In this document: positions 1 to 32,000 of the stretch, one piece after another | Layout: the number at the start of each line of letters is the position of its first letter | How positions within the stretch are numbered: the stretch's first letter is position 1 | Origin: Candidatus Saccharimonadota bacterium | GTDB taxonomy: Bacteria; Patescibacteriota; Gracilibacteria; Absconditabacterales; Absconditicoccaceae | Reading direction: 5' to 3' | Assembly (NCBI GenBank): GCA_000503875.1 | Contig: CP006913.1 | Coordinates: 930,001 to 962,000 of the forward strand | DNA: 32,000 nt | Made by a program: the position numbers and the translations under genes | Notes under the pieces: generated by a model | Database searches by the model: none | Seen by the model: only the letters and a program-made list of their open reading frames with translations | What the model was told of the DNA's origin: nothing

Positions 1-1598
1 GTCATACAAAAAATATCTATTCGCAAAATCCTAAAATATCTACTACAGCTTATTTGTTTTTTTTGTTTAACTTTATTTTCATTATAGGTGTCATAATCAC
101 CGGCAGCCGCCATAATATTATATCCTCTATTTGCCTCTACTTGTGTAGCAAAAAGACTATTACTAGCTCCTAATGTTTTTCCATTAGAAGAACCATATCC
201 TGTATTCAAAAGAGCAACTCCAGAAAAAGAATCTAAATTTCTAAAAGTTCATCTATACGCACTAAATTCTTGTGCTGAAACTATATCTTGAGCAAATGTA
301 CCAAAATAATAATTTTTATAGAGATCATTTGTTGTTCTTTCACACCAACGTTTAGGAAATATTCAGATTCGTTTCTTTTTGTTAGTTCGATCTTGATGAA
401 GAGATTCTGCTATAACAGGGATCGTCATATACCAATTATTGCTCTCAATCTTTTTATCCAATGCTTCTTCCATAGCATCATTAAATGAAATCATAATAGG
501 CGATATTCATTTTCATGCATCTCAAAGAGTTAGAGAATCTTTCAATGCTACTTTATGGATATGAGAATCTACTCCATCAACCCGTTCTCCACTTCCTGTC
601 TTTTTATACCATCTTGCTGCGGCCTGCGTGTTGTCTTTGATTGTTGACAAAAAGACACCAGGATAAAGATTTTCATATCTCGTGATTAATTCTTTTATAA
701 CAGACAACAACATAGTTGTTGGAACACTTGATTCACCCAGAGCATCAAAAGTACCAGCTCATGATAACATAATTTGGGTTAATTCTGGGTTGTTTTGAGA
801 GACACTTGCCAATCAATCAATCAAATCAGACATATCATCATTTTGAACTTGTTTGAAATAATCAAGCATCAAATTGGTAAATCTATGATATCATATATCC
901 TCTGTAAACAAGAAATTATTGATATAGAAAGGGAGTGTATCTTCAGCAAATGTTGTTTTCATTGCAACAAAATCATCATACCATAGAAGTGGTGCGACGA
1001 AATCAGCTGGGGCAGCTGCATATTTTCTTAATTTTTGGAAAAAATCATGATATTTAGAATCTTCTGATCAAAAATTAAGTATTCAATGCCAGATTTCCGC
1101 CTGCCCCCTTGGATTATTGTTATACACAAAAAACTGTTGATTTGCATCATAGACAAATTGTTGCTCTTCAAAATCTACATACGGAAAAATCGTAGGATAG
1201 ATAAATCCATTATTTTGAACAACTGGCAACGGAATATCTCAGATAAAAACAGCTCATAACAAATCAGATGTTTCTCATTTTATACCATCAAAATACATAT
1301 TTTCCAACATTCTCACCACATCAATTGCTTTGAAATTTTGAGTATTAATAGGTAAAACCAATGCTTTAGAATTGGAAATACGTTGTTGAATATAATCAGT
1401 AGCATACCATTCAATATCACTTTTTGCATTTTGATAAATATCTTTATCTACAAAAACAGCCACCAAATGAGTCCTATCCAAGGGGTTTTCTGCAAAAACA
1501 GATCAAAAATCAACAAAAAACCAACTCTGTAAAAAGTAGGACAAAGAATATATAAGCAACAAAAGTCAAATCAAATGCCTTTTATGCAAAAAATACAT
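1..1598 (-). CDS. large secreted/surface protein; the C-terminal part runs off the window edge (possible peptidase C25/gingipain-like region, weak)
   Basis: One minus-strand frame is open from ATG 1598-1596 to position 1 when TGA is sense; I scanned for in-frame TAA/TAG and found none. It joins track ORFs 1275..1481 and 522..713. The N-terminus MYFLHKRHLIGLLLLIYSLSYFLQ is signal/TM-like. Family assignment rests only on loose motif resemblance (AVFIGDIPLP, EIWHGI). Confidence 0.6.
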
Positions 1599-1851
1599 GC
1601 TTGTTTTTCAAGATAAAACTTTCAAACAAAAACATAACAAACAATACATCGCAACTATACAAAAACAAAATCAAAAATAAACAAAAAATCAGATTTTATA
1701 TGCTTTTTCAAATTGACAATTAACGTTAAATGTATACCATCTCTTATGTTTGATCCACTATGGCAAATTTAGGGTTTTAAATATGAAAAAATTCATTATT
1801 ATAAAAAAGATGACAACAATATATTTAGTCACTAATTAAAAAATCTAATAT

Positions 1852-3045
1852 ATGAACGAACCACTTTCATCACTCCTCAGACCACAAACATTAGACGAAT
1901 GTATAGGACAACAACATCTCATTGGAGAAGGTAAACCTATACGTGGTTTTTTGGAACAAAAAAAAATTCCTTCAATGTTATTCCGATGACCTCCAGGCTG
2001 CGGTAAAACCACAATCGCGAAAGTTATTGCCAATACTATCGAAGCAGAAACATTTTTTTTATCAGGAGTTACTAGCAAAAAAGAAGACCTTAAACAGATA
2101 TTAACACAAGCAAAAACAAATAAACAATACGGCAAAACAACGATAATCTTTTTGGATGAAATTCATCGTCGAAACAAGGCACAACAAGATACTTTGCTTC
2201 CTCACGTAGAAAAATGAGATATTATTTTGATTTGAGCAACTACAGAAAATCCTAGTTTTTCAATTAATAGTGCTCTATTATCAAGGACTAGAACTTTTGT
2301 TTTCGAAAGATTATGAGAAAAAGATATTAGTGATTTTATCAAAAACAATCGACAAAAAATTCTGATATCTCATCCGGATATTATTGTTTCAGATGAAATA
2401 CTTTCTTTTATAGCAAGGCTTGGAAACGGCGATTTAAGAAATAGTCTAAATATACTAGAATCGGCAATTTTTCTCAAAAAAAGCTGATCACTTACCGAAG
2501 AAGATATTATAATAGCTGGCCAAAAAAATATATATTATGACAAAAATGGTGACGAACATTATAATATCATTTCAGCTATTCACAAATCATTGCGTGACAG
2601 CAATGGAGATGCTGCCTGTTATCGGATTCAAAGGATGCTAGCTGGCGGGGAGGACCCGCTATATATAGCGAGGAGATTACTCCGCTTCGCTTCCGAAGAC
2701 ATAGGCCCCGCCGACAACAACGCTCTTTTATTAGCAAATCAAGTTTATGACGCAGTTTCCAAAGTTGGTATGCCAGAATGTGATATTTTTCTAATCCAAC
2801 TCGCGCTCTATCTTGCTAAGGCACCAAAAAATAACATTACCTATAAAATTTCTTTGGAAACGAAAGCCGATATACAAAAATATGGAAATCTTCCCGTACC
2901 AATGGATATTAGAAATGCACCAACTAAATTTATGGAAGGATTATGATACGGAAAAAATTATCAATATACCCATGATCAACCAGACAAGAAGACAAATAAT
3001 CAGCATTTTCCTACTGAATTAAAAGACAGAATTTACGGAAAATAA
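1852..3045 (+). CDS. rarA: recombination factor / replication-associated AAA+ ATPase RarA (MgsA)
   Basis: ATG 1852, TAA 3043-3045. Code-25 translation gives Walker A FRGPPGCGKTT (Gly = TGA 1987-1989), DEIHRRNKAQQD, LIGATTENPSF (Gly = TGA 2233-2235) and a C-terminal GYGKNYQYTHD. It fuses track ORF 2590..2946 with upstream fragments. Confidence 0.9.
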
Positions 3046-3108
3046 CAACTCTTGAAATACCCATACGGTTCTATAAAATATACATACTTTATATTCTTAT
3101 TTTTTCTC

Positions 3109-3630
3109 ATGAAAAAATTTATTGTATGAGTAGTTATGATTGGAAGCATTTTATTAGTATGATGTTCCAAGGCACCTAGTTCAGAAACTACTAATCCAGA
3201 AGAAACAGTAACAGAAAATCAAAATGTTTTTAAATGAACAGCTAAAGATCTTTTCAAAAAAGGAGACAATGTATCTTGTTCATTTACCTTTGAAAACGAA
3301 GATACAAAAGAAGAATGAACTGTTTATGTTGACAAAGGAATGATGAAGACAGTCGCAAAAGTTCTTCTCAAAAAAGAAAATATGAGTATGGAAGCGTTTA
3401 GTGTAACAAAAGATGGTTACACCTATACTCGAAGTAATATTCAAAAAAGCCAATGAGCTAAATTCAGAAATATAGATGATAAAGGAAATGAAGAAATCTA
3501 TACAGAAGACCCTCTAGACGATAAAGAAGTAAACTTTATTTGTAAAGAAACAAAGATAGACGAAAGCACATTTGCTATTCCTGCTGATATAAGCTTTATG
3601 GACATCACAGAGTATTTGAAAGACAAATAA
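3109..3630 (+). CDS. small lipoprotein, function unknown
   Basis: ATG 3109, TAA 3628-3630. The N-terminus MKKFIVGVVMIGSILLVGCS is a signal peptide plus lipobox L-V-G-C, with the lipobox Gly encoded by TGA 3160-3162. Confidence 0.7.
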
Positions 3631-3640
3631 TACACAACAA

Positions 3641-3673
3641 AAAAAAGCCAACCTTTTCGGTTGGCTTTTTTTT
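3641..3673. terminator. bidirectional rho-independent terminator between the convergent lipoprotein gene and secA
   Basis: Stem gccaacc (3647-3653) / ggttggc (3659-3665) with a 5-nt loop, an A-run on the 5' side and a T-run on the 3' side. It overlaps the secA stop codon. Confidence 0.7.
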
Positions 3674-6600
3674 ATACTGATCAACAACATTTTTTATATT
3701 TTTTACCGCTACCACAAGGGCAAAGATCATTTGGTTTTGGTTTTTTAGATCAAGTATCAAATATATCTTTATAAGGAGATGCTGGTTGTGAAGAAACTTC
3801 AAACACCTCTATCTCATCATTTTTACTAGAATTGGTAACAGATTTTTTAACAGGTGTCACTTTTGTACTCGCTTGCTGCAAAATATCAAGATATGAAGAA
3901 TCTACAGGAATTTCAATAACAGGTTCTGGAGACGCTTTTCCATTAAAATCAAAATTCATTAAATACATGGTTACATCTTGTTTAAGCCTGAGCAATAATG
4001 TTTGGAATTTTTCAAATGCTTCTTTTTTATAAACAACCAAGGGATCTATTTGTGCATATCCCATCAATCCAACTTTATCTCTCAAATATTCCATCTCATC
4101 GATATGTTTAACCCAAAGAATATCAAGATGGTAAAGGTATACGTCTTTCAAAAGCATATATGCCATCATTTGGTCGGCAGATGAAAGTGGTGATATTATT
4201 TTTTTAATAAGATATTCTGATAAAGTATTTTGAAGATCTCAAAAAGAGAGTCCAGTAAATTGATTGACATCATCCTTATTTACACCAAATTCTTTAATAG
4301 CAGTTTCCAAAAAAGAATTTTCTGTTTGTCCCATATTTTGAGCAGTTTCGATTTGATAAGATACAACATCACGAATATTTTGTGGGATTTCTAATAACAT
4401 AGATTCAACCAAAGATTTTCTACGATTTTCATCCTTTTCAGAGAACAAAATATCATCTCTTTTTTTGTAAATAGCTTGTCTCTGTTTATTAATTACACTG
4501 TCATATTCAAAGACATGTTTTCTAGAACCAAAATGCCAAGCTTCCATTTGTTTTTGTGCTCTTACAATAGAGCTACTAAATTGCTTTTGAGTAAGTTCAA
4601 GATTTTCTAATTCTGCTTTTGGAAGTATCATAGCTGCCATAGATTGAATTCTTTCTCCTCCCATTTTTCTCATAATCAAGTCATCCAACGCCACAAAAAA
4701 CACAGAAATACCTGGATCTCATTGTCTTCCTGCACGTCCACGAAGTTGATTATCTATACGTCTTGACTCGTGTTTTTCTGTTCCAAGGATAAATAATCCA
4801 TAATGGAAATCTTTTTGTATCAGATCAGAAGCGTTTTTATGTTCAACCAAAAGTTTTGCATAAGCGTCTTCGTTATTTTTTTTACGAGAATTGAAAATAA
4901 CTTTTAAAATAACACCATCCAATTCCAATCCACCAGATTCTATAGTGCGAATTTGTTCTTCAGTTAAATTCCATATACGCATCAATCCATCCATTGTCAT
5001 TTCGTATTCTATTTGAGAATACACAACAGCTGAAATAGAAGATGGCGTTTTTGCAAGAACTTGTTTTTTAATCCATTGTGCATAATTATCAGCTAATTTA
5101 TCATTAAGTCATTTATCTAATTTGATATCAGTTCCACGTCAAGCCATATTTGTGGCTACTACGACACTTTTAAATTTTCCTGCTTGAGAAACTATATGCG
5201 CTTCTTGTTCATGAAATTTAGCATTAAGCACATAATGAGTTATTCCTTCTTTCTCTAATACTTTAGAAACATGTTCAGATGTATCAATAGAAGACGTTCA
5301 AATCAAAATAGGCTGACCAATTTCATAAGCAAATTTAATATACTCTTTTACAAATTTCCATTTTGCTGCTTGATTAAAATATACTTTATCATGTTTATCA
5401 ACTCTAATTGTTGGTTTATTGGTAGGTATTTCCAATACAGAAAGTTCATATATTTTTTCAAATTCTTCTCCTTCGGTAGTAGCAGTACCTGTCATACCAG
5501 CCAATTTTTTGTATTGTTTGAAAAAATTTTGATAGGTAATAGTTGCCATTGTTTTTGATTCTTTTTGTATATTTACTCATTCTTTAGCTTCAATTGCTTG
5601 ATGAAGTCATTCAGAAAATCTTCTTCCTGGCATAGTACGACCAGTATGTTCATCAACAATAAGCACTTCTCAGTTAACAACTATATATTCTCTATCTTTA
5701 AAATACACAGCCTGAGATCTTAATGCATTTTCAATATGATGGATTTCTTCATATCCAATATCTTTGTAGAGATTTTCAACTTTCAAAATTTCTTCCAACT
5801 TTTTGATACCTCTTCCACTCAATGAAACAGTTTTTGTTTTTTCATCAATATAATAATCTCCATCTTCTTCTTGTTGAAGTTCTTCAGCATGAACCAATTC
5901 ATTTAACAATCATTTTGATACTTTCTTTTTACTAGAACAAGGATTTAATAAACGAACAATTTGTGAATAATATGCATATTTATCTGTAGCTTCACCACTT
6001 GCTTCTGAAATAATCAATGGTGTTCTAGCTTCATCAATCAAAATACTATCAATTTCATCTACAATAGAATAATGAAGTGGTCTCCATGTAAGACTTCTTT
6101 CTTTTATTGATTTTACCAAATTATCTCTCAAAAAATCAAATCATAATTCTGAATTTTCAACATAAGTAATATCACTTTCATACATTTCACGTCTTTTTTG
6201 TAACGATACTTTTTTTGTTACACAACCAACTGTCAATCCAAGAAAACGATATACTGATCACATCCAATCAGAATCACGAGATGCTAAGTAATCATTGACA
6301 GTAACAACATGAACACCTTTTCCTTCCAATGCATTAAGATACACAGGGGCTACCGCAACCAATGTTTTTCCTTCTCCTGTTTTCATTTCAGTAATAATTC
6401 CTTTATGCAAAATAATTCATCACAAAAGCTGAACATCATAAGGAACCATATCCCAAATCATTTTTTGTCATCTAACTTCTATTTCTTTACCAACAAGTCT
6501 TTTACATGCTTGTTTTACAAGACCAAACGCTTCTGGTAAAAGTTCATCTACCGTAGCTCATGCAGCAATTCTATCTTTAAATTCTTGTGTTTTTTTGGGA

Positions 6601-6728
6601 AAATCTTCTTCTTTAAAAGAAGCGTATTGTTCACACCAATCATTTGCCTGACGAACCAAAGGCATCATTTTATCTATCTGTTTTTGGTTATAATTTCCAG
6701 ACATCCAATTCAAAATCCATTGAAACAT
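3672..6728 (-). CDS. secA: preprotein translocase ATPase SecA
   Basis: ATG 6728-6726, TAA 3674-3672. Six track fragments share one frame, and the gaps I scanned have no in-frame TAA/TAG. Motifs: [26 protein letters not shown] (GG = TGA TGA 6417-6422), NSELGFDFLRDN, GRAGRQGDPG, and the C-terminal zinc motif [14 protein letters not shown]. Confidence 0.95.
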
Positions 6729-7089: not shown

Positions 7090-7902
7090 TTATAAAGCAT
7101 TATAAGCAACATTAATAGTATTTCACCTAGAGAGCATTCGTTGAAGTTTTTTTTCTCTAGATAAAAATTTTCCATGTCCAGTATGATAAACATTTACAGA
7201 GTATATTCAATTTTGTTTGGTTTCAACAATTTTTGTAAATATATTTTCCAAAATAGACAATCCATAGAATCTCATATTTGTATACCTCGCTTTCTCTATA
7301 GCTTTTTGTACCAAAAAATATGAATAATTACAAGGTATAATGGTATCAACTTTTGCATCTTTAAAATAACGAAGATCTTGCTTAACCATATGGTGCAGTA
7401 ATGGCATAGACCAAGAACAAGTATCCAATAAGTATTTCCAATTTCTTACTTCCCTTCCTCGCCATGCAAATGGAACATGAAATTTTTTAATTTCACGTTG
7501 ATGGTCAGATAAAACATAGTCTTTAGCCAGAATTGTTAATTGTTTTTGTCATTCTTCGAGATCAAACAAATCTCCAAAAAAGCCAAGTTTCCCTACTAAT
7601 GAATAGGTGAAACAATTTTCTTTAACGTAAGATTCAAATAAAGGCAAAAAAGTAACTCCTGGAAAAAGTTTTTCATTGCGAATTTTCAATTCAATAATAG
7701 GGGGAACCAATATGGTATCAACACCTTTTTCTTGTAAGAAACGAATTCCTTGTGTCACGCGCTCCATAACAAGTTCAACTGGTTTATCTCACCAAAATAA
7801 AAATGTATCATCGTACCAAACATGATATTCATGATCATAACGTTGCAAAAACGAAAACAATGCCAACATATCATTTCCTGAAGTCAAAATGCCTATTTTC
7901 AT
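7090..7902 (-). CDS. glutamate racemase-like (MurI/Asp-Glu racemase family) protein with a degenerate first active-site motif
   Basis: ATG 7902-7900, TAA 7092-7090. It joins track ORFs 7549..7767 and 7207..7428. MKIGILTSG...WYDD...GVDTILVPPIIE...VDTIIPCNYSYF parallels MurI IGVxDSG...YxGD...ACNTA...GCTHYP by eye. The second Cys motif is retained and the first Cys is absent. Confidence 0.5.
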
Positions 7903-8484: not shown

Positions 8485-9489
8485 CTAAAATAAATAATGT
8501 ATCATTTTTTTCACATCTAACCAAAAATTTAAATCTGACTTTTTTCCTGTTTTAATATCGTTATCCAATTCAATCAATCATCTATAAAACGAAATAATTC
8601 CTTTTTTGTTACGAGATATCATATCTATGTTTTTAGTAATTTTGGATACAACAAAAGGATGTGCCTTAAGTATAGACGTAATAATTTTAGAATCTTTTAT
8701 ATTTTGTTCAAAACAATCCAACACAAAAAGCCAATTTTTAATTCCTCGATATAATGTTCAAACAAAGGCATTCCAACTTTCTCCCTCTTCTTGTAAACGA
8801 GCTACCAATTCAAGTGCTTTTTGTTTGTTTGAAAAAAGCATATCAAATAATGCTAAATTATTTCCTTCTGTCATTCCAAAAGTAAGAAGATCTATGTCTT
8901 TTTCAGAGATTTCAGAAGAACTACTGACCTCAGACCACAATAATAATTTATTAAGTTCATTCTGAATATGAAGCAATGAAGGCCCTGTTTTAGCCAAAAA
9001 TGAATCCAAAACAGATTCTGATCGCTTAATTGTAGGCGATTTCTGACGAATAATTTGTTTAAGTTCTATTGGTTTCAGTGGTCAAAATTCTTTTATACCA
9101 GTTTTAGGATCCAATTCCTTTTTCAAGAAAGTATAGAATTTTGTCCTTTTATCAGGTTTGTACGAAACAAAAATCAAGATTGTTTCTGCTACAATTACAC
9201 CATTTCTCTGCATAAATTCGTCAGAAAATTGTTGAATAATTGAGGCAGAAAGTTTATTCGAAGTATCTCCATCCAAAGGAAGCCCGTACACAACTATCAT
9301 TCTTTTTTGGGCAAAAAGTCACCCGCTGTACAGAACCTGCCTCAATGATTCCAAAGAAAGATCATCTGTTTTATATATCAAAAGGGCGTCCGTTCAATAT
9401 TTTTGAACAAATCAATCAGTTCGTCTCTTCAATTCTTGATGAAGGAGATATTTCTCTTCTCAAGTAAATAGAAAAATATTTGAAAGCAT
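8485..9489 (-). CDS. holA: DNA polymerase III delta subunit (HolA)-like
   Basis: ATG 9489-9487, TAG 8487-8485. It joins track ORFs 9082..9300 and 8758..9009. The N-terminal FLFTGEEKYLLHQEL...SGGLFAQKRMIVVYGLP pattern and a length of about 334 aa are typical of HolA. Identification is by motif resemblance only. Confidence 0.65.
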
Positions 9490-9562: not shown

Positions 9563-9598
9563 ATCAGCTATGAGCTATTAGCCATCAGCTATGAGCTA
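9563..9598. repeat. two exact 15-bp direct repeats, atcagctatgagcta, with a 21-bp period
   Basis: Copies lie at 9563-9577 and 9584-9598. They sit just 3' of and overlapping the hsp20 stop, about 75-110 bp upstream of the holA start. Confidence 0.8.
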
Positions 9599-9958
9599 AC
9601 CCGCATCATATTCCACTTCTAAAGCTATTTTCTCTGGGATAAGTGCTTTTGGAACAATAACTTGTAACGTATTATCCGGTGAAAGTTTACTATGGATCTT
9701 ATCAAAATATACTTGGGGTGGTAAATCTATTTCTTGGTGAATTGGTCATCGATAACAAGATTCTTTGATTGGAATAAGGTTGTCTTTCAGTATTGGTTGC
9801 GCCCTTTCACCACGAATTACCAATTTATAATCTTTAATTGAAAGTGTTAAACTTTCTTTTTTCACTCCTCCCAACGGCAAAAAAAGGACCAATTCTTGTG
9901 GTGATTCATAAATATCATAAGGTATAATTGGCATTTCTTGTTGCTGAGGAGTTGTCAT
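9596..9958 (-). CDS. small heat-shock protein, Hsp20/alpha-crystallin family
   Basis: ATG 9958-9956. The track stop 9746-9748 is TGA; the true TAG is 9598-9596. SLTLSIKDYKLVIRGER...CYRGPIHQEIDLPPQV...LQVIVPK follows the ACD pattern (xxFxRxxxLP...GVLxIxxPK). Confidence 0.75.
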
Positions 9959-10554: not shown

Positions 10555-11142
10555 CTAAAAGAAGCTAAAATGAGGTAAAAATCTAAGATATACTTTTCAA
10601 ATTACATGATCCAAAGGTACTTCATAACTAGCGCCATTATAACAATCTAATCAAAAACAACAACGAGAATCGGTAGAAAAACTTCTATTATCTCCCATAA
10701 CAAAATAACCATTTAACACTTTAAATTCATTCAATCCACATCTTGTGTCGGTCCACACTGTTTCAGAAAGATATGGTTGTTCAAGTTGAGAACAATCTTC
10801 TTTATTTTCTTGTATAGAACAAATCGAAACTTTATTGTTATAAATTTTAACTGTTTCACCTGGAAGTCAAACGACCCTTTTGATGTAAGGAACTGTTTTT
10901 CCTGGAGGAACAAAAACAATAATATCTCCTCTTGCAAGTTCCCCAAATCTTGGAGTAATTTTATCTACAATAATAAAATCATTTTCTTGAAAAGTAGGTG
11001 CCATACTTGCACCAACAACTGTATATGGATTTGCTATAAAAAATCTGACAAACAAAACAATCCCTCAAACAAATACCAAAAAAGAGAGCATATCAAACAA
11101 ATCAAATACAACTTCTAAGAATTTTCTATTTTTCAACAGCAT
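10555..11142 (-). CDS. lepB: signal peptidase I
   Basis: ATG 11142-11140, TAG 10557-10555. N-terminal TM helix, catalytic VVGASMAPT, RGDIIVF, KRVVGLPGE (Gly = TGA), GDNRSFSTDSR, C-terminal VIGKVYLRFLP. Confidence 0.9.
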
Positions 11143-11229
11143 GCTTCAACATATATAACCCAAGTAAAAACAAAGAATGGAGCAAAAATCTTGTCCATTC
11201 TTTCCTATGTACATTATGTAGACAACAAA

Positions 11230-11631
11230 TTAGAATGGAACTTCTTCGTCTTCTGGATGTTCAACTAAGTCAACTTCTTCTCCTCCTTCTTCTCTAACTC
11301 CTTTAGGATCCAAGAAGATAAAATTATCAACAATAATTTCTGTAGAGAATCTTTCTACTCCTTCACTATCTTGCCATTTTCTTGTTCTAAGTCTTCATTC
11401 TATATATATTCTTTTCCCTTTATTTAAATATTTTCCCAATACATCAGCACCCTTTCCATAAGCAACACATCTATGATATTCCGCGTCTTCCAAAACATTA
11501 CCATCTTTATTTTTAAATTTCCTGTTGGTTGCTACAGTAAAATTCACAACAGGTGTTCAGCTACTCTCTATGGTTTTAACCTGCAAGTTATTGGTAGCTC
11601 TTCAAATAATCATCACCTTGTTCAAATCCAT
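11230..11631 (-). CDS. ssb: single-stranded DNA-binding protein
   Basis: ATG 11631-11629, TAA 11232-11230. OB-fold N-terminus NKVMIIGRATNNLQ...EYHRCVAYGK...IEGRLRTRKW and an acidic tail ending EDEEVPF, the SSB C-terminal tip. Confidence 0.9.
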
Positions 11632-11751: not shown

Positions 11752-11837
11752 GCCCAGATGATGGAATGGTAGACATGCTAGACTCAAAATCTGGTGGCTT
11801 TACGGCTGTGAGGGTTCGAGTCCCTCTCTGGGTACCA
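11752..11837 (+). tRNA. tRNA-Leu(CAA), type II with a long variable arm and an encoded CCA
   Basis: Manual fold. Acceptor GCCCAGA/TCTGGGT. Anticodon stem CTAGA/TCTGG with loop CTCAAAA (U33, anticodon CAA, A37). A 15-nt variable arm. T-arm GAGGG-TTCGAGT-CCCTC, discriminator A, then CCA. Confidence 0.9.
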
Positions 11838-14118: not shown

Positions 14119-14550
14119 ATGAATCAAAAAAGATGAAGGAAACCAGTCACTGAGTATAAAACTCACTATAAAATGTATAAAGATGCATTTCAACATCTCC
14201 TTAGATATATCCATGAAAAGAATCTCCAATCACTGTATACCAAATGAAAGATCTCCTTTGGTATCCAAGAAAGCGATGTCGTCCTCTCCTATATTTTCCA
14301 AAACATAAAGATCGAATCAACGATCAAGATTGATATGTCTGACCGTAGACATATTGATGAGCTCAATAAAGCGATCCAAGATTTCTTTATCGATACTCGG
14401 TATATGTATGAATGGGACTGAACCCCTACCAAAAATCAGGACTTAGCTAGAATCCATTGAATTTCTCCTCAGGCGATGAAGGTCGCATTACAAAATATCA
14501 AAGACAAAATCCTCGAAGATTATGGCGAGCAACTTTCGTATCGTTCGTAA
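14119..14550 (+). CDS. putative DNA-binding protein with a C-terminal helix-turn-helix
   Basis: ATG 14119, TAA 14548-14550, with four in-frame TGA. The C-terminal QDLARIHGISPQAMKVALQNIKDKI looks like an HTH (sigma-70 region 4/LuxR-like). No family assignment was possible by eye. Confidence 0.5.
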
Positions 14551-19246: not shown

Positions 19247-19277
19247 TTTTTATTTGGTAATACCATACAGAAAATAT

Positions 19278-20441
19278 ATGAAAAAAATTATTGCCCTTTG
19301 TGGCTTACTTTTTGTGTTTTTTTATAGTTTAACATTTGCAGAAGAATATACTTTTTTCTATGGAAATTGATGTCCTCATTGTGCAAATGTTGAGAATTTT
19401 TTCAACGAAGAAAAAATTGAAAAAAAGTTTAATATAACATCTAAAGAAATCTATTTTAATAGGGACAATCTAAAAGATCTCAACTATTACTTAGAGAAGA
19501 TGAACCTTCCATCTGAAAAGATGGGTATCCCTTTTCTCGTCATTACTAGTTGATCAGATACTTCTTACCTCAATGGTGATGAACCTATTATTGATTTCTT
19601 TACGAAAAAGCTCAATCAAAATACTACTTCATGAACATGAGAAAATGTCGCCTCAACTTGTGCATTAACATCAGGTAGTGATTCTTCAACTTGTTCATGA
19701 TCTTCTACCACAAACTGAATAAATCCTCCATGAGGAGTCAAAGATTGATTCAAAAACAGACTTTCTTTCTTTGCTATTATGCTTCCTGCGGCGATCTCGG
19801 ATAGTATCAATCCCTGTGCTTTCGCAGTAATGTTTCTCTTATTGTCAGCAATATTATCAAAGCATAAAAGTAGAAAGAAGGCACTCCTTGCAGGATTTAT
19901 GTTTGCATTGGCGGTATTTATTAGTTATCTAGCAATGGGAATATGATTATTTTCTGCATTGGCATGATCTGGTAATACATTCATTCTCAAATTAGTAGTC
20001 TGAATCTTATGAATTCTTGTTTGACTTGCTAATATCAAAGATTACTTTTGGTATGGGAAATTGTTTGTGATGGAAGTTCCATTCTCACGAAGACCCAAAA
20101 TGGCAGATCTAATAGATAAGGTCTCTTCTCCACGATGAGCATTTGCTGTAGGAATTCTCGTAAGTTTATTCTTACTGCCATGTTCTTCATGACCTTACTT
20201 TACTATCTTAGGATATCTAAGTTCTGAAAGCAAAACACTAACTAATTGGTGATATCTCTACCTTGTTATATACAATCTAATTTTTGTATTACCTATGGTA
20301 ATTATTGCTATATTGGTTGGATTTGGATATAGCACAGTTGATAAATTAGCCAAAGTTAAACATCAGAATACAAAACTTATCCACTTAATCGTTGGACTGC
20401 TTATGCTTGGCTTAGGTATCTATGTACTAGTAACGATTTAA
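19278..20441 (+). CDS. fusion of an exported thioredoxin-like domain (CPHC) with a CcdA/DsbD-type transmembrane thiol-disulfide electron-transfer domain
   Basis: ATG 19278, TAA 20439-20441. Signal peptide, then FFYGNGCPHC (19368-19382). A Ser/Thr/Cys linker, then multiple TM helices with the two signature Cys motifs SINPCAF and LLPCSSGPY. Fully translated without TAA/TAG. Confidence 0.85.
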
Positions 20442-20460
20442 TTTATTTTGTGAAATTATC

Positions 20461-22410
20461 ATGGCAACATTCAAAGAATTACGATGAATACAAAAATTTC
20501 GTATGATCATAATATGACTATTGTGTATTCTGCCTTTAGAGATACTCTCTCTATATGGACAAAGGTTTTTAGGTATTTGAGAACGAATACTGTTTCTTAT
20601 TATCTGAATAATCTTTTGAAAAGAGATTTTATTAAAGGGAGTAAAGTCATTATTTCGTTTGAAATTCAGTGATATAAATCTTTTAATGATCATAGCGATT
20701 GGAGGTGCAAGTTATCTTGGTGAGCTTCCTGAAGCTATGATTATCATAGTACTTTTTGCTTTGGGAGAAATGTTGGAAGATTATTGAATTATGAAAAGCA
20801 AACAAGCACTAGAAAACCTTACAAACACTATGCCAAAGATAGGTTTTATAAAAGATATCTGAGAGGTTGCCATAGATAAGATCACGATTGGAAGTATCCT
20901 CATTGTCAAATCATGAGAGCAGATACCCGTAGATTGAAAAATTATTTTTGGTGATGCTTTGGTTGATGAAACAACTATAACCTGAGAACCTTTACCTAAA
21001 TCAAAAACAATAAGCGAAGCTGTCTTTTCGTGAACTATGAATATAAGTTGATATTTAGAAATAGAAACAACAAAGAAATGAGAAGATAGCACATTAGCAA
21101 AAATAATAAATATTACTTACAATTCTTCACAAAAGAAAGCTAACTATCAAAGATTTATACAGAAATTTGCACACTATTATACTCCATCAGTGATGGTTTT
21201 AGCTTTGCTATTAGTTGTCATACCAGTGGTCTTTCTCTGATGAGATTTTAATCACTGGTTTTGACAAGCTATTACACTTCTGATTATTGCTTGTCCTTGT
21301 GCTCTAGTTCTTTCTACTCCTGTAGCGGTTTTCTCTGCAATAGGAAATGCAACATCCCATGGCATTGTCATCAAATGAGCAAAATATCTGGAAGAAATAG
21401 GAAAAATAAAAGCAATCGCTATGGATAAAACCAGAACTCTTACAAAAGGAGAACCACAAATATCAGATATTATCTCACTTGATTGAGATGATGAGAATAC
21501 CTTCCTTGCATGTATAGGTGGTATGGAACAATACTCGGAACACCCCATCGCTCGTTGTGTTGTACAAGAGGCACAAAAAAGATGAATAGAATTACATAAA
21601 CATAAAGATTTTGTGTCAGTCTGAGGAAAAGGAATAAAATCTGAATGTTTAATTTGTAAGGACACCCATCGTTGTTTGGGAAGTGCTAAATTTGTCTGAG
21701 AAGAACATAATATACCAGAACAGATAAAGAAAAAAATCTATGCTTTAGAAGAAGAAGGGAAGACTATTATCCTTGTCAGTAGCCATCAAAAAGTCATCTG
21801 AATAATAGGAATCATAGATACTATAAGACAAGAAAGCAAAGATACTGTAAATGAACTAAGAAAGATGAGTATTGAAGTAGTTATGCTAACATGAGATCAT
21901 CAAAAAGCTGGAGAAATTATTGCCAAAGAAGTAGGAATAACGAATATCAAAGGCTGATTATTACCTGATCAAAAAGCTGAAGAAATAGAGAAATTAGTCA
22001 AAGAATATGGTAGTGTTGCTATGCTTTGAGATGGGGTAAACGATGCACCAGCTTTGGTATTGTCATCCGTAGGTATTGCTATGGGTGCAGTGTGATCTGA
22101 TATGGCTATAGAAAATGCAGATATAGCTCTTATGAATGATAAGATTTGACTGATACCTTATCTTATTCGCCTAAGTAGAAACTGTCATAATATTATTAAA
22201 TTCAATACAGCTCTCGCAATAGGAGTCAAAGCATGTGTGCTATGATTAGCAGTTTTTGGTATTAGTAATCTAAGTCTAGCGATTGTGAGTGATGTTTGAG
22301 TTACAATCTTTGTTGTTATCAATAGTCTAAGATTATTCTGAGTGAAAAATAAGTCTTTAAAGTTTGAACATAAAAGCAAAAAAGATGATTGTTGTGAGGC
22401 TTGTCATTAG
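20461..22410 (+). CDS. P1B-type heavy-metal-translocating ATPase (CPC type; Cu or Zn/Cd specificity unresolved)
   Basis: ATG 20461, TAG 22408-22410. [18 protein letters not shown] (21292-21300), the phosphorylation site as DKTRTLT (21424-21444), [24 protein letters not shown]. There is no N-terminal HMA domain. The C-terminal tail is [10 protein letters not shown]. Confidence 0.9.
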
Positions 22411-22489: not shown

Positions 22490-23968
22490 ATGCAACAACA
22501 AATATATCTTGATAATATCATCACAAAAGAAGTCAGCACCAGAGGTAAATTCAAGAAGATTTACGAAAATGATGCCAGCCATTTTGTGTTGGGAACTTTC
22601 AAAGCTAATGTCTTTAATATCAAAACCTATCTCAGTAACCACAAAAACAAAGATGAGTATTTGTATTTGAATGTGAACCTCCTTTCTTTGATGGCAAATA
22701 CTACTGCTGATTATATCATTGGTGATGGAATAGAAATCGATATTGATAACGAACAAGCCAAAGCAAAACGAGATGAGATAAGTGAAGCCAACGGATTTGA
22801 TGAGTTGCTTTACAACATCGCTTTGAATACTTGAATCTATGGCTATGCAGTTTTAAGATCAAGAAAAGATGACAAGGACAATATTGTAATTGAAGAGATA
22901 CCTTACGATTATTACTTTCCACAAATTGAATGATTATTCTTGGGAGAAGACCCCAACAAAATCTATCTCATCAGCAAGATCAACGAAACTTTATGAAGTT
23001 CTATCCAACAAAAAGCAAAAATACAATCCTACACCAAACAAGAAAACTGAAACTGGTTGATTGAATATGGTTTGTATTCAGTCGCTCTTGATGGTACTCA
23101 GTACAGTTTAGAAAAAGAACTCGCACCTGCTGAGACATTAGACTTCTTGAACATCTATCGTTTTGATAACAGGAAGGTCAGTTGAAAGTATCTAGGCAAC
23201 AATGACTACACAGATATTCTTGATCTTCTAGAGGAAGTGAACGACAGGTTTACCCAAATATCACTCCAGTTTATCAAACATCTCAATAGTAAAATTTCAC
23301 TTCCTGAATGAGTATCTGCACTCCTTCAAAACAAAGATAAATCAATCCACAACTTAGAAGTCTTTGTGCATAGACAAGGAGAGCAACCAGCTCAGTATAT
23401 CGAAAACCATAATTCATTGATCCCTGAAGCACAAACCTACATCGATAAGATACTCAAACTTATCGGAGCGATAACTCAAATCCCTATCTCTTTCTTTGGG
23501 TTTGAAGAATCCTGAGGAGCCGAGAAGGTAGAAGCACTCAGGATCAGGCTCACAAGATTTCTCAAGAAGATACAAAGAAAGCAAAGAATGATGGAACTGA
23601 CTTTGAAAAAGCTGATCAAAGAAACTCTAGCTTTTGCAGGAGTTCAAGGAGAGTTTTCAATTGATGTTAAATTCTCAGATGCGATGTTGAAAGACCTGCA
23701 ACAAAACACTCAGATGTATATTGATTTGTATAATAACAAACTTGTATCTCAAGAAACAGCAATCGCCAATATCTTTTCTTGGGAAAAAGACATGGTACAA
23801 AAAGAACTCGCTATCATCAAAACAGAACAAGAAGAGCAACAAAAAAAGCAGATAGAATTGAATAAATCTTTACCAACTAACAAACCAAATAATGGCAGTA
23901 ATTGATCCAAACAAGACAAACCAGGAACTAAGGGAAGTGCTGATTCTTCTTTTACTAACAAACAATAA
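22490..23968 (+). CDS. portal protein (SPP1 gp6-like by size, position and pattern)
   Basis: ATG 22490, TAA 23966-23968. It joins track ORFs 22490..22834 and 23588..23905. About 492 aa, upstream of scaffold and capsid. The internal stretch was fully translated without TAA/TAG. Confidence 0.8.
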
Positions 23969-24781: not shown

Positions 24782-25945
24782 ATGCAACTTTCATTTGATC
24801 TTTCACAAATTACCGAAAGACAGGTCTTAGACCTCTTTACACAGTTTCTTAAAGAACAATCATCTGCTTTGGAGATTTTCTTGAGAAATGGTGCCTGATA
24901 CAATGCAGGTACAAACAATAAATACGAGTGGATGGAAAGCCAACTCACTCCTATGTCCTGGGCAGTTAATGGAACCGTAACTCCTAGCGATTCTCCTGAA
25001 TCAATAACCTTCAATTCAACTGCTGGTATGAGACCAAATATGATCTTAAGATTTGTGTATACAGCCGACAATACTGATATTGAAGACTTACAAATCAAGA
25101 TCGTTTCTGTTGATAGTCCAACCTCTGTAAAAGGTATCGTTTATGGTGGTACCACTCCTATTGATCTTGATGCTACTATGACTGCAAAACTTATGTCAGA
25201 AGCAGTACAAGAAAATGAAAAGAATATCGTTGGAGTTGATGAATGGAAACCAACTATGGAACACAACTTTTTCCAAATCTTCAGAAATGCTGTCGAACTT
25301 TCTGATACAGCATTGAACTCTGCGGTCTATGGAAATGTAAATACTCTCGCTGAACAACTCAAAGGAGCTTTCTACAAAATCAGACAGCAACTTTCTGAAC
25401 AAGCTTTGAGAGGTCGTAAAGTAGCAAGAACTGGTGGAGAAAATGGAACCTTCGGAGGTCTATTCCAATTTACTGATATCGCTGGTGGTAACATTCTCGA
25501 TGCAGGAGGTGGAGATCTAACTTCTACTACTATCAATGATCTTGTGCAGATGATTATTGAAGACGGTGGTGTCGCAAACACTCTCGTTTGTAATATCAAT
25601 CAAGCAAGAAAAATTAGTGGATTCAATGTTTCTGGAAATAATCCTGTGATCGCACAAAACTCTACACAAGCAGGAAGTTATGTCTTGAGATTTATCTCAG
25701 ATATTCCTGTGGCTGGTGGTGTTGTTTCAAATATCCTTCTTGATGAGAAGATGCCAAATAATGCAGTTGATTTGATTGATATCAATAGACTTGCATTGGT
25801 ACCATTTCAAAATAGAGGTTTGAAACTTGTGCCAGGAACCCAACCAGGACAAGACGGTCAGACTGCGATCTTGAGATGAGAATATACCATGGTTGTTAAA
25901 GATGGTAAATACTCACACGGTCGTATCAAGAACCTTAATCCCTAG
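24782..25945 (+). CDS. major capsid protein
   Basis: ATG 24782, TAG 25943-25945. It extends track ORF 24932..25879 at both ends through TGA codons. About 387 aa, following the scaffold gene. The call rests on composition and position. Confidence 0.75.
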
Positions 25946-26614: not shown

Positions 26615-27049
26615 ATGAACCACAATATCACTCCTGAGTATGTTAAACAAATCAGCATCGTGAGTAATCTCCTGGTTGAAAATGATGAGATCATAGAAAA
26701 ATATATCACGAGAGCTTTGTCACTCGTTTTATCGTACATCAATGGTCAGATTTTTTTTGATGAATCTAGTCAGACTTATACTTTTCCAGAAGAGCTCATG
26801 CAAGCGATCGTGTATGTTTTAGAAATGATTTATATCGATCAAGGAATGTTTACTGGAAAAAACAGTATCCAATCAGAAAAGATCGGAGATTATTCCTATC
26901 AGAAAAAACAAGATAGCAGATCGTTTCCACTAGATCTCCCTGCCAATATTATGGCGATGCTTGATAAATATAGAACCCTTGCATGAAATCTTGATGTAGA
27001 TATTGGAGGCTATGACAGACTTTATCCTTCAGAAAATACAGATGATTAA
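26615..27049 (+). CDS. head-tail connector (gp6-like adaptor) protein
   Basis: ATG 26615. The track stop 26984-26986 is TGA; the true TAA is 27047-27049. Size, position and an N-terminal pattern (ITPEYVKQ...IEKYITRALSLVLSYING) are typical of phage connector proteins. Confidence 0.55.
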
Positions 27050-27374
27050 AGATTTATATACTCATACGGTAGCAATAGAAACTCCTGAGATGTTAAATAT
27101 TGATGGGATCGAAACCAAGAATTATATCCCAGTAGGAACATTCAAAGGAAGACTATCAAAAGCATGAAGCCAACAAATGGTTGATCTGACGACAGGGAAA
27201 CTCCATAGAGTTCAACCTGAGATTTTCTTTTTGTATATTTCTGATGAGACACCTATTGGAAAAAATGATAGGGTCTATATTGAAGGCAACTTTTACTTAG
27301 TCAACTCTGTGGAGGTTATCTTTGATTGAAGGGTAACTCACCACCTTCGTTGCATAATTGAAAGACGGCAATAA
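27012..27374 (+). CDS. head closure / head-tail joining protein
   Basis: ATG 27012 overlaps the previous gene; TAA 27372-27374. It is 120 aa. The assignment is positional within the conserved connector series. Confidence 0.5.
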
Positions 27375-27856
27375 TGGAAGTAAAAATCAATCAAGAAGTT
27401 TTAGAAAAAGTATTCAGAGCCGAGAGAGATGCTTTGCAAGATACAGCTCAGTATGTTTTGCAATTACTCAAAGAGAAAGTCAAAAAGGAGGCTTTTGATA
27501 CTTGAGAGTTTGAAAAAAGTCTGTTTGTGAAAGTAATTTGAAATTGAAATGTAATCCAAATCTGATCAAGAACAGCACAGGCAGTCATCATGGAATTTTG
27601 AAGAAGACCACTCCAAAAAAGACCGCCTATGGATTCGTTAGTTTGATGGGCAAGCCGTCATGGAATGATAGCAGGTTGAGTAAAAAGCTATGCAAATCTG
27701 AAATCAAAAGACAAGTGAACGGTCTATCTTCTAGCCACTTCAATTGCAAAGAAAGGTATCAAACCAAGGGAGATTTTTAGGAAACTTTACAACGAAACCA
27801 TAGATCAGATTAATGCTTATTTTATCTCAGCTCTCAAAAAAAGACTTTGATCATAA
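27374..27856 (+). CDS. HK97 gp10-like tail-component protein
   Basis: ATG 27374 (TAATG overlap), TAA 27854-27856. It contains 9 TGA codons. IGSRTAQAVIMEFGRRP...PPMDSLVGWASRHG matches the gp10-family pattern. The standard-code track instead shows a spurious alternative-frame ORF at 27538..27780. Confidence 0.65.
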
Positions 27857-27878
27857 TTTACTTCACTAAACAAGACCC

Positions 27879-28328
27879 ATGGTACCAACGCCACCGCCAC
27901 CACCAGTAGTGATAGAACCACCAGTCCCTATCAATCTCAAAAAAGCAATCTACGAATATTTATCATCACTTCCTGAGTTATCAGAAACAATCCAAGGAAG
28001 GGTTTTTAGGAAAAGATCACAATCACAAACTCAGACACCATTTATTGTTTATGATGTGAGTGGCTATGAAAATAAACTTTGAAAGTACCAATGAAAACAT
28101 GGATATCAAGGAAACAAGCTGACGATAGATATTATTTGAAACTATGAAATTGAAGAGCAACTCAGAGAAATTGGAGAACTTTTGGTATCTAAGTTATGAG
28201 GCTTTATTGGGAAGTTAAGACCATGCCGAAAATGAACAATCAATCTGATGTGAGTAGATGAATGATACGATGAAAAAACCGATTATTCCGTATTTAGACT
28301 TATGTTTTTATGCAAACATACCTTTTAG
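27879..28328 (+). CDS. tail completion/terminator-like protein (DUF3168-like), with a proline-rich N-terminus
   Basis: ATG 27879, TAG 28326-28328. It extends track ORF 27879..28082 through TGAs. It begins MVPTPPPPPVVIEPPVP. The assignment is positional. Confidence 0.5.
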
Positions 28329-28402
28329 ATTGATAAATTTTTAATCTGACTATATTCCCATTGCTGGTATTTCATTTCTTTATTTATTTCATTTTTACTC
28401 TC

Positions 28403-29173
28403 ATGACACAAACAACATGAATCATCAATGATCAGAGGTTGCTGGCTGGTGCTGGAGAATTCTACTACTGATCTTCTTTATCATCTCTAGTAAGGCTTGG
28501 TGCTTATAGAGATGCGGTTATTGAATCCAAAAGAGAAAGTTCCGAGCTTGTCTTTGATAACGACAAGATCAACAAATTCAAAAAGGGTTCTGAGTTCTCT
28601 TTCAAATTCAAACTTTGTGAAATCGATCCTGATACTTTAGCAAGTCTCAATGAAGGTTGGATCACAAAAACTTCTATCCCTGGAACACTTGTTTCTGGAG
28701 CAACTCAAGTGATCGCATCAAATACGATCCAGTTTCTATCACTCGTTGAACTCGAACATCAAAACTACGATAATGGAGCGATCAGTATTACTTCAATCGT
28801 TGGTTCTGTAGATGGGACAATCTCTGCTTCAGATTATTTTCAAGTAGTCTGACCTGCTGGTAGAAGAAACATCTACTTCAAATCAGGTGGATCAGTAACA
28901 ACTCTCAATCAAACTTTCACGATTACTTACAATTATACTCCTGCACAAAGTAGAAAATTTACCTTTGCAGACACAGGAATTGCATCTAGATTCTATGCAA
29001 GATTTATTCACGAGAGACCTGATGGTAAACAAATCACTATCGATCTTAAAGATGTCCAAAACTTGACTTGATTAACGATAGACTTTGTTGGTAATAGCGA
29101 GGACGATGTAGCTACCTGTGATATAGAACTCAATGGTAAAGTTACATCTCAAGGATTTGTTTATGAAGTATAG
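28403..29173 (+). CDS. major tail protein
   Basis: ATG 28403, TAG 29171-29173. About 256 aa, immediately upstream of the chaperone pair and tape measure. It is absent from the standard-code track because of 5 in-frame TGA codons. Confidence 0.6.
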
Positions 29174-29583: not shown

Positions 29584-29774
29584 CCCTGTTTATCAAATAC
29601 TATAACCAGGAACTGGAAGCAGTACTCAATATGACAGCTTGCCAGTTTTTTGGGTTATTGGAAGAGATACAATATTTGGAAGACCCGAAAAAGATAAGGA
29701 AAACCAATCTTCCAAAACAGAAGATCAAGAAATTGGAAAACAAAAAAGACTTTGAAGACTTTTTCTTTGGATAA
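29218..29774 (+). CDS. gpGT-like frameshift fusion chaperone (0-frame 29218-29505, then -1 frame 29505-29774)
   Basis: The -1 frame downstream of the slippery site contains track ORF 29577..29774 and is continuous back to the T-run when TGA = Gly. The architecture matches the conserved G/GT arrangement upstream of tape measure genes. Confidence 0.5.
29499..29505 (+). promoter_or_regulatory. candidate -1 programmed ribosomal frameshift heptamer, U UUU UUU
   Basis: A T9 run at 29498-29506. The 0-frame reads ATT TTT TTT TGA. The -1 frame is open from 29505 to TAA 29772-29774. Confidence 0.55.
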
Positions 29775-29845
29775 AAAATAAACTGATAAAACTCAATTCT
29801 GATTAAAACTGGAGGTAGTAATTTACCTCTTTTTTTTTGATGTTT

Positions 29846-32000
29846 ATGGCAACAAATAAAATCTTTGAACTTCTCCGAGATCTCAAACTTGATAGAACCT
29901 GAGTAGCTCAACAACTCAACCAGGTTAGAGATGATATCAATGGTTTCAATCAAAGAATCAAAGATCAGACCGCTTTGCAACTTTCTTTGAATGTAGGAAA
30001 TCTCAAAACCAAACTTGATGAAGTTAAAGCACAAATAAAACTGGCAAAAGAACAAGGAAACCGTGACGGAGTTATCCAACTAACTGCCGATGCTTCGAGG
30101 ATTCAACAATCACTAACTCAAGCAGGTAGAGAGCTGAGGAATTATACAAGAACCTGATCGTCAGATATCTCAGTTTTATGAAAAAACTTTCAAGGAGTTA
30201 ATACGGAGATACTCAAACAATGAGGGATTATCCAAAGTACCGTTCAGAAAATGAAGGTCACTTTTTCGTGATTAAAAGAGATTATCCTGACTGCTTTTTC
30301 TGTTACTGCGATTATTGGATTTGTGAAATCTTTATTCACTCTATCGTCAGAACTCCAGCAGGCAAAAATAGCCTTCACTAATATGTTTAAGAGTGAAGAG
30401 ATAGCGATCAAACTTCTTAAACAAATTCAGGCTTTTGCAAAACAAACTCCGTTTGATCAGATGGGACTTATCGACTGAGCCAAAAGACTATCTGCCTACG
30501 GTTTCAAAGCAAATCAAATTCTTCCAATCATGAAATCGCTCGGAGATGCTGTGGCTGGTGTGGGTTGAAACCAAGATACCTTAAATGGTGTGATCGTAGC
30601 CCTTGGACAGATGCAAACCAAAGGAAAATTGGTGCAACAAGAAGTAAATCAGATCGCTGAAAGAGGTATCCCTATTTTCGAGATTTTGAGAAAAAAACTC
30701 GGTTTGACTCAAGAACAATTGGGTAACATCTGAGAACAAGGAATCTCCTCAGCCAAAGCTATCCCATTAATCTTGGAAGGTATCAATGAAAAGTTTTGAT
30801 GACTTATGGAACAGCAATCCAAGACCCTTCAAGGAAAGCTCTCAAATATGATTGATAGTTTCAAAATTAAGATGGCAGAGCTTGGATTGGTACTGGCTCC
30901 CATTTTCTGAGGTATCATCTCGAGTTTGCAAGCAATCATTACTCCTGTCTTCAATATCCTGATCTTAGGAATCAAGGGGCTATGAGTCGTATTCAAAACT
31001 GTGTTTGATGGTGCAAAACAGGTCTATCAATTTTTTGCTAATAATTTTGTCATCATTACAAAAACAATCCTGGCGACTTTTCTGTCTGCTTTGATTATCA
31101 TGAAACAACAAACGGTCATTACCTTTTTGCAAGGAATCGTGAACACTATTATCAGATGAATGGCGATAGCTTGAACTGCCGTGATTAATTTCTCAAAAGC
31201 CAGTCGATACTTCATAACCAACCTGAGAACAATAGTCGTCGAGGCTACCAGAGCTACGGTCGCCTTTATCAAAAAATGAGTAGCTCTTGCAGTAACTACC
31301 GTCAGAACATATGCACAAATTATAGCCAACAACCTCGCTTCATTATCTTTTCGTAGTCTTGGACTTTCTATTTTAGGTGCATTGAAAAATCTTTTATTGT
31401 TAGGTGCGAGGTTTTTCTTGATCGGTACAATCGTAGCAACCGTAGTGATTGCGATCTATAAAAACTGGAGTGTATTGAAAGAGAAATTGAAACCTGTCTT
31501 TGAGTTTATGGCAAAGGTCTGACAGGCAGTTCCTTGAGCGATAGCCAAAGCATGGAATTTTTGTGTTGATGTTATTTTTGGAGCTATCAAAGGGATATTG
31601 AAGTCCTGAAAGGCTGTCGCTGATTTTCTTAAAAATACTTTCAATGTGGATATTGGAAGTGCAAAGATTGATAAATATATCTCAGATATTGAGAACATGA
31701 GACAGAAACTTCAAACCAATGAAGGAGAAATCAAATCGGTATTTGATGGGATCAAAGAAGAGGCAGTCTGAGCCTTTGAATTTGTAAAAGATAATGTCCT
31801 GGGACTTGGTGATGCTACCAACCTCCTGTGAGGTGATGTTTTATCGTTGAATGGAAAATTTGATGATATGTGAAATGCTTCTGAATCGGCTGGTAAAAAA
31901 TGATCCAAAGCAACCCAAGAAGCCAAAGACCAACTTGCTGAATTAAAAAAAGAAACTGAGCAAGTAGAGAAAGCAAACGACAGACTAGAAAAAGCAATAA
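29846..32000 (+). CDS. tail tape measure protein (partial; continues beyond the window)
   Basis: ATG 29846 (in-frame ATG also at 29840). Translated to position 32000 without TAA/TAG. The core matches TP901-type TMP: AFTNMFKSEE...FAKQTPFDQMGLIDGAKRLSAYGF...SLGDAVAGVGG...ALGQMQTKGKLVQQEVNQIAERGIPIFE. It also has hydrophobic segments and coiled coils. Confidence 0.9.

Follow-up and report, generated by a model that had tools for sequence, protein, structure and literature searches.

Comparative evidence for glycine at UGA and probable tryptophan at CGA and CGG in host and prophage genes of candidate division SR1 bacterium RAAC1_SR1_1

The genetic code of the Absconditabacteria (SR1) has been described in two ways. 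NCBI translation table 25, which PMC8629427 and the gTranslate preprint credit to Campbell et al. 2013 and Rinke et al. 2013, reads UGA as glycine, uses UAA and UAG as sole stops, and keeps CGA and CGG as arginine. Codetta (Shulgina & Eddy 2021 eLife; PMC8629427) predicted UGA as glycine and both CGA and CGG as tryptophan in Absconditabacteria; its source data for assembly GCA_000503875.1 (RAAC1_SR1_1) give UGA as glycine, CGA as tryptophan and CGG as '?', and list the transfer RNAs (tRNA) tRNA(UCG), tRNA(CCG) and tRNA(GCG) as present and tRNA(ACG) as absent. The same reassignment was recovered by KACI (2026 preprint), and tools of 2026 still handle Absconditabacterales as table 25. Liu et al. 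2023 mBio (PMC10746230) described code-25 prophages of Absconditabacteria and Gracilibacteria, the 15 from Absconditabacteria all having a high density of in-frame TGA; the study compared only codes 11 and 25 by coding density and never mentioned CGA. The window studied here (the whole stretch of 32,000 nucleotides at positions 930,001 to 962,000 of CP006913.1 in GCA_000503875.1) holds host genes followed by a prophage. In both parts, codon comparisons indicated that UGA very probably encodes glycine, CGA and CGG tryptophan, and that no stops other than UAA and UAG are used.

By its sequence, the window (33% guanine plus cytosine) was identified as chromosomal DNA from candidate division SR1 bacterium RAAC1_SR1_1, a member of the Absconditabacteria in GTDB genus UBA5124. 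All unmasked residues of its RarA were identical to P148_SR1C00001G0842 of RAAC1_SR1_1, encoded on a contig of 1,177,760 bp, and the nearest relatives of its SecA were from Absconditabacteria metagenome-assembled genomes (83-85% identity), which bore out the SR1/Absconditabacteria origin proposed in the original prediction. Traits of Absconditabacterales membership (low GC and arginine usage dominated by AGA, with 212 of 317 true Arg codons) were found in the window; together with very rare CGG they match the Codetta description, which is of the same organism. Housekeeping genes occupied 1-11837, the last being a tRNA-Leu(CAA) gene, and the integrated tailed prophage occupied 11909-32000. Gene families were assigned with Pfam, PHROGs and NCBIfam, and tRNA and other RNA were scanned for with ARAGORN and Rfam. 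An independent assembly, Logan SRR944699, was 100% identical to the window over 15973-32000 (16 kb); its contig SRR944699_202056 (45,191 bp; locus L001) was located by exact look-up of a 108-residue protein, and exact look-up of a TGA-free protein of 159 residues gave no match.

Stop-to-stop frames read with table 11 were no longer than 327 amino acids, and those of at least 100 amino acids covered 39% of the window. Once TGA was counted as sense, the maximum rose to 1027 amino acids, 13 frames had at least 300 amino acids, and coverage by frames of at least 100 amino acids reached 96%. Controls in which TAG or TAA was made sense instead gave coverage of 50% and 70%, respectively, and no more than two frames of 300 amino acids or longer. 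Only TGA as sense rescued the structure of the open reading frames, which marks TGA, and not TAG or TAA, as the sense codon. All ten sets of TGA positions which the original prediction listed were TGA on the strand given. With TAA and TAG as sole stops, 30 genes of at least 80 amino acids filled 90% of the window, closely spaced or overlapping; together with two to three small open frames this made approximately 32-34 genes, close to the predicted 35 or so. Complete genes ended in TAA (19) or TAG (9) and in no other codon, also as predicted, so that UAA and UAG are kept as stops as in table 25. In-frame TGA codons numbered 237; each decile of gene length held 19-30 of them, an even distribution with no accumulation at the 3' end.

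Conserved positions of host proteins placed glycine at UGA. In SecA (3672..6728, - strand; Pfam SecA domains; 17 TGA, 11 TGG, no CGA or CGG), 13 of 14 aligned TGA codons were opposite Gly in B. subtilis SecA (1m6n), including all of those in the GG, ELG and RQG motifs, and in 79 orthologues the columns with TGA in the window held GGN 611 times, TGA 439 times and TGG never. RarA/MgsA, a host AAA+ ATPase (1852..3045, + strand; Pfam MgsA_C, AAA_assoc_2 and AAA; 6 TGA, 3 CGA, 1 CGG, no TGG), was compared with 95 representatives at 41-51% identity; TGA46, TGA122, TGA128 and TGA365 faced Gly in 89/92, 93/94, 92/95 and 86/92 of them (93-99% per column), so that all four conserved TGA columns were Gly. 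In the single-strand DNA-binding protein SSB (11230..11631, - strand; Pfam SSB), TGA10 and TGA78 faced Gly and TGG faced a conserved Trp (7f2n, 3tqy), and in signal peptidase I (LepB; 10555..11214, - strand; Pfam Peptidase_S26) TGA115 faced the Gly of KRxxGLPG (4nv4, 4wvh). The lipobox L-V-[TGA]-C of a lipoprotein (3109..3630, + strand), read directly from the sequence, has TGA at position -1, which Gly suits and Trp would not.

The prophage genes gave the same picture. The ParB-N/N6_N4 DNA methyltransferase (14522..15805, + strand; 10 TGA, 3 CGA) was aligned with 108 homologues at no more than 57% identity; Gly was present in 108, 105, 104 and 107 of these at TGA179, TGA264, TGA364 and TGA365, the last two being the motif I pair (104/108 and 107/108), and four of five conserved TGA columns were Gly. 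In the large terminase subunit (16277..17797, + strand; PHROG matches; 12 TGA, 3 CGA), TGA69, TGA197 and TGA423 faced Gly in 78/78, 76/78 and 77/77 of 78 standard-code terminases, which were obtained from IMG/VR by alignment query. In the P1B heavy-metal ATPase (within 18314..22410, + strand), 11 of 29 TGA codons faced Gly and none faced Trp in 7qbz; all invariant motif positions were Gly, and TGA of the TGDH and GDGVND motifs faced Gly in both 7qbz and 4umv. The placement of TGA on invariant glycines that the original prediction had described held for RarA, SecA, the methyltransferase, the ATPase and the lipobox, and for one of four codons in the motif of the large serine recombinase (11909..13603, - strand; Pfam Resolvase and Zn_ribbon_recom; 12 TGA, 6 CGA): TGA66 faced the conserved glycine of an SG pair in four standard-code phage recombinases from INPHARED, and the other three TGA were in variable columns. 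A search of PDB with the recombinase gave no matches.

Over the conserved columns pooled from three standard-code reference sets, TGA was at Gly in 12 of 18 (p = 1e-9) and at Trp in none, and the mean share of Gly at TGA (0.54) was indistinguishable from that at GGA (0.53) and GGT (0.59). Codon exchange among orthologues, read at the DNA level and independent of any translation, agreed: in 80 SR1 genomes the columns with TGA in the window held GGN in 738 cases, TGA in 526 and TGG in none. Comparison of sequences thus supports the reading of UGA as Gly, and not Trp, in chromosomal and prophage genes alike, as had been predicted for the whole window.

CGA and CGG (39 and 4 among 9673 codons) made up 43 of the 105 codons of tryptophan type. 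The statement that TGG was still used for Trp was therefore true and incomplete, RarA having no TGG at all. At residue 45 of RarA (CGA at 1984-1986, + strand), 81 of 92 standard-code homologues had Trp, and SR1 orthologues had CGA six times and TGG once; the Walker A motif of E. coli RarA (3pvs), LWGPPGTGKTT, aligned with FWGPPGCGKTT in the window, and the Arg with which this motif had been written in the original prediction was replaced by Trp. Residue 107 of RarA, at another of these codons, was Phe in 73 homologues. The CGA columns of the methyltransferase (residues 119, 284 and 298; 14876-14878, 15371-15373 and 15413-15415) were Trp in 90, 106 and 106 of the 108 homologues. The terminase CGA codons are at 16649-16651, 16946-16948 and 17546-17548; among the standard-code terminases, CGA224 faced Trp in 78/78, and CGA424 faced Trp in 51 and Phe in 25. 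In the pooled conserved columns CGA was at Trp in six of seven, at Phe in one of seven and at Arg in none (p = 3e-10). Arg was found in the same data at AGA (15/17), CGT (3/3) and AGG (3/3), and no further codon with at least three columns departed from table 11.

Exchange among orthologues supported tryptophan in genes of both parts of the window. In host orthologues the window CGA columns held CGA 49, TGG 46 and CGG 12 times and Arg codons never; conversely, the TGG columns of SecA held TGG 412, CGA 146 and CGG 41 times in the 79 orthologues, and CGT or AGA never. In a conserved hypothetical host gene (7090..7902, - strand), the two CGA columns (7459-7461 and 7138-7140) held CGA 13, TGG 8 and CGG 5 times, and TGG 14, CGA 7 and CGG 4 times, respectively. 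Of the three CGA columns of the DNA polymerase III delta subunit gene holA (8485..9489, - strand; Pfam DNA_pol3_delta_C), two held only CGA, TGG or CGG and the third held Ile or TGG; CGA70 of the Hsp20 small heat-shock protein (9596..9958, - strand; Pfam HSP20) was CGA four times and TGG once. Against the IMG/VR contigs L082 and L083, prophage CGA columns held CGA 14 and TGG 12 times and Arg codons never, CGA in charged contexts included. CGA47 of the recombinase faced Y, Y, H and F in the four standard-code phage recombinases and TGG in L082 and SR1 loci; CGA94 of the portal protein faced TGG in L082 and TTT in L083, and CGA13 of the tape measure protein faced TGG in L082. CGA codons in Lys- or Arg-rich contexts were exchanged with TGG in L082, with 369-371 as the sole exception.

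Several observations weigh against glycine at UGA and tryptophan at CGA and CGG. Terminase TGA376 (17402-17404) faced Tyr in 70 of 77 standard-code terminases, and two conserved TGA columns in the pooled sets were Ala. CGA at 369-371 (residue 427 of gene 3-1649) faced AGA or AAA in orthologues (AGA three times). The misfits at 369-371 and 17402-17404 are possibly real substitutions, local misalignments or traces of ambiguous decoding. Only four CGG codons were in the window, three of them informative, and Codetta read CGG as Arg in UBA5124 sp002414185, a sister species (PMC8629427). A tRNA with anticodon UCA, UCG or CCG was found neither in the window, where tRNA-Leu(CAA) was the sole tRNA by ARAGORN and Rfam, nor by ARAGORN in 81 related loci (1.3 Mb), a sample of 1-2% of each genome that is too small to be informative, and no release-factor gene was found in the window. 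The evidence for codon meanings is all comparative, and some ambiguous decoding would be compatible with it.

The scarcity of CGG bears on a divided CGN box, in which CGA is Trp and CGG is still Arg, unassigned or ambiguously decoded. Such a box would agree with the Codetta results, in which CGG was left uninferred in RAAC1_SR1_1 and was Arg in the sister species, and with the window itself, in which one of the four CGG among 9673 codons was C-terminal and uninformative. The other three were Trp-like and none was Arg-like, numbers too small to settle the codon firmly, for which the call for this genome had been '?'. At residue 258 of RarA (CGG at 2623-2625, + strand) 56 homologues had Trp, 37 had Tyr and one had Arg (ALYW in E. 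coli), and orthologues had CGA 3, CGG 2 and TGG 2 times; the CGG of gene 3-1649 faced TGG or Leu in orthologues, and that of gene 14119-14550 faced CGA in L082. More distant SR1 genomes had CGG at Trp columns in 47 cases and at Arg columns in none, and a tRNA(UCG) would read both CGA and CGG by wobble. A divided box was judged unlikely.

Still less probable was plain NCBI table 25, with UGA as Gly, CGA and CGG as Arg and the remainder standard. It is correct for UGA and is used by the NCBI annotation, and the AGA and AAA codons opposite CGA at 369-371 would fit it; this was the only one of the 43 sites at which an Arg codon was opposite CGA or CGG, and table 25 failed at all other comparable sites. 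Nor did the window agree with a code in which all 61 standard sense codons are unchanged, since CGA was on Trp in six of seven conserved columns and on Arg in none, with AGA, CGT and AGG on Arg. Scores of hidden Markov models (HMM) increased in the same direction: NF009881 on RarA scored 314.8, 333.6 and 346.7 bits, and PF01555 on the methyltransferase 74.5, 86.9 and 89.1 bits, with table 4, with table 25, and with table 25 plus CGA and CGG as Trp, respectively; the last reading also brought the DsbD-like protein over the Pfam threshold. As a description of this code, the plain table 25 of the original prediction was not supported, because CGA and CGG were on Trp or aromatic columns and were exchanged with TGG. 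By these comparisons table 25 mistranslates 43 codons in 32 kb, including the residue just before the Walker A Gly.

Table 4 (Mycoplasma-type, UGA as Trp) gives the same open reading frames as table 25 and is used in the Logan/ENA gene calls. It was refuted by three results: no TGA column had a majority of Trp in any reference set, exchange between TGA and TGG in orthologues was zero, and the translation with Gly scored 12-53 bits above that with Trp in curated HMMs (874.1 with table 4 to 913.8 with table 25 for TIGR00963 on SecA; 496.8 versus 549.5 for TIGR01525 on the ATPase). It was thus regarded as extremely improbable. The standard code, under which TGA would be a genuine stop (in pseudogenes or through assembly errors) or a selenocysteine site, was a formal possibility and nothing more, and was rejected as next to impossible: the 237 TGA were evenly spread over 30 genes and on conserved Gly, TGA or GGN was conserved at these sites across 80 genomes, the independent assembly was identical, and Rfam returned no structured RNA resembling a selenocysteine insertion sequence in the window.

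If UGA is Gly and CGA and CGG are Trp, the literature suggests that UGA would be read by a tRNA-Gly(UCA), release factor 2 having been lost, that CGA and CGG would be read by tRNA(UCG) and tRNA(CCG) with acquired Trp identity, and that tRNA(GCG) would retain CGU and CGC as Arg. This mechanism rests on the literature because such tRNA and release-factor genes were absent from the window and flanks. Regions flanking SecA in SR1 relatives (L002-L081) contained 17 tRNA-Arg(GCG) and no tRNA-Arg(ACG), a pattern which agrees with published reading of CGU and CGC by tRNA(GCG), and not by inosine, in the Candidate Phyla Radiation. No tRNA genes were found in the examined parts of the phage genomes (L001, L082 and L083) or in the prophage part of the window; because of this the phage would rely on host tRNAs, on which it presumably depends, and must share the host code.

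The rest of the window, from 11909 onwards, was identified as an integrated tailed prophage by its integrase, terminase, portal, capsid and tail genes and by an empty site in a relative. After the recombinase (the integrase), the methyltransferase and the terminase came an SPP1-type portal gene (22490..23968; Pfam SPP1_portal), an SU10-type major capsid gene (24782..25945; Pfam SU10_MCP), head-tail adaptor, neck, tail terminator and major tail genes (26615..29173; PHROG matches) and a tape measure gene (29840..32000; Pfam TMP_3), all on the + strand; the last continued past the window end and encoded 1258 amino acids on the Logan contig. The recombinase faced tRNA-Leu(CAA) (11752..11837, + strand; ARAGORN, Rfam), the 3' end of which was the prophage junction: homology to phage-free relatives ended at 11834-11840. 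In the closest relative, L033, a hairpin and then host genes followed the tRNA-Leu, so that this locus is the empty site; in L006 a different serine recombinase was at the same place, and in L005 homology extended 65 bp beyond the tRNA, to the contig end. The tRNA-Leu(CAA) 3' end thus looks like a recurrent integration site. The window holds only the left end of the prophage, and the right end (attR) lies beyond it. The first base of the Logan contig mapped to approximately 11805, inside tRNA-Leu, which fits a break of the assembly at the attachment site; integrated and excised forms were possibly both in the sample.

Between terminase and portal lay cargo genes (18314..22410, + strand; Pfam E1-E2_ATPase, Hydrolase and DsbD_TM) for a DsbA/thioredoxin-like protein, a DsbD-type membrane protein and the P1B heavy-metal ATPase, which is of Zn/Cd type. 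The block as a whole (17798-22410; 4.7 kb) also contained a small open frame. L082 was syntenic with the window except that its portal started 30 bp after the terminase; because terminase directly precedes portal there, the redox and ATPase block is an insertion, and it looks like a moron module. It had 62 TGA versus 58 GGN codons, and TGA as a share of Gly codons was 52% versus 30-39% elsewhere, the highest in the window (Fisher p = 2e-4); perhaps the block came from another lineage with UGA as Gly. TGA made up 2 of 36 Gly codons in the major capsid gene, which had no CGA or CGG, and 50-75% of Gly codons in the neighbouring small structural genes. The capsid gene, as the most highly expressed, may avoid reassigned codons. 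A search of IMG/VR with the single major capsid protein found one relative only. Gene 15805-16284, encoding a small phage protein with no family match, had three CGA in 22 Lys-rich residues (15931-15996), two kept as CGA in L082 and one facing CTT; if CGA is Trp, this would form an unusual W-x6-W-x13-W in a charged helix.

It is quite likely that a lineage of temperate Absconditabacteria phages has adopted the host code, with UGA as Gly and CGA and CGG as Trp, with no cognate tRNAs in the parts of its genomes that were examined. On this reading CGG, for which Codetta gave no call in RAAC1_SR1_1, would be Trp there. This lineage would comprise the prophage, L082 and L083, and probably approximately 115 terminase clusters in which public translations were split between W and R at Trp columns. 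The prophages of PMC10746230 are likewise integrated, with portal, terminase, tail and integrase genes, dense in TGA and following the stop reassignment of the host, whereas the prophage in the window also follows the sense-codon change from Arg to Trp. Phages reading AGG as Met in AGG-recoded Bacilli (PMC8629427) similarly follow a sense reassignment of their hosts with no cognate tRNA, but differ in codon, amino acid and host phylum, and were two free assemblies rather than an integrated prophage with a terminase family. Phages of the Absconditabacteria lineage were not examined in PMC8629427, whereas here a prophage and two viral contigs had CGA and TGG interchanged; in the literature searched, no report was found of CGA and CGG as Trp in these phages.

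SecA had an insertion of 13 residues near its N-terminus (residues 81-93) relative to B. subtilis SecA, and an additional stretch of approximately 100 residues (approximately 542-643; 541 to 644 in the query against 499 to 504 in B. subtilis).

Public protein records reflected the tables with which they had been translated. The NCBI record of RarA (P0002; table 25) had R at all four CGA and CGG sites, and the Logan/ENA record (P0001; table 4) had W at every TGA. Public entries of the terminase family had only W or R at Trp columns and G or W at Gly columns. Searches of a set of 5.8 billion proteins returned same-lineage proteins only, both with the terminase and with RarA, in the latter case with mixtures of W and G and of W and R. 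Such same-lineage proteins are unfit as standard-code references; the search for RarA representatives used the NCBI translation P0002. The mistranslated sets were P0001, P0002, P0003-P0120 and P0246-P0360.

The code of this genome was already known, current knowledge is not overturned by the window, and the original prediction was partly right. The additions are small: Trp-like CGG at three of four sites, a phage clade with the sense-codon change, and mistranslated database entries. Translation of this genome or its phages by table 11, 4 or 25 yields wrong proteins; in 32 kb, NCBI has Arg for Trp at 43 codons, often at an invariant Trp in an active-site motif, and Logan/ENA has Trp for Gly at 237 codons, and these mistranslations propagate into protein databases as artificial W/R and G/W polymorphism, as in the terminase family. 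Independently of Codetta, the window confirms in a small space a reassignment of sense codons, a kind of change of which bacteria have few examples. An integrated phage that follows a host sense-codon change bears on code changes as barriers to viruses and horizontal gene transfer and, if the reading is true, these phages would be natural viruses locked to a host with a recoded sense codon.

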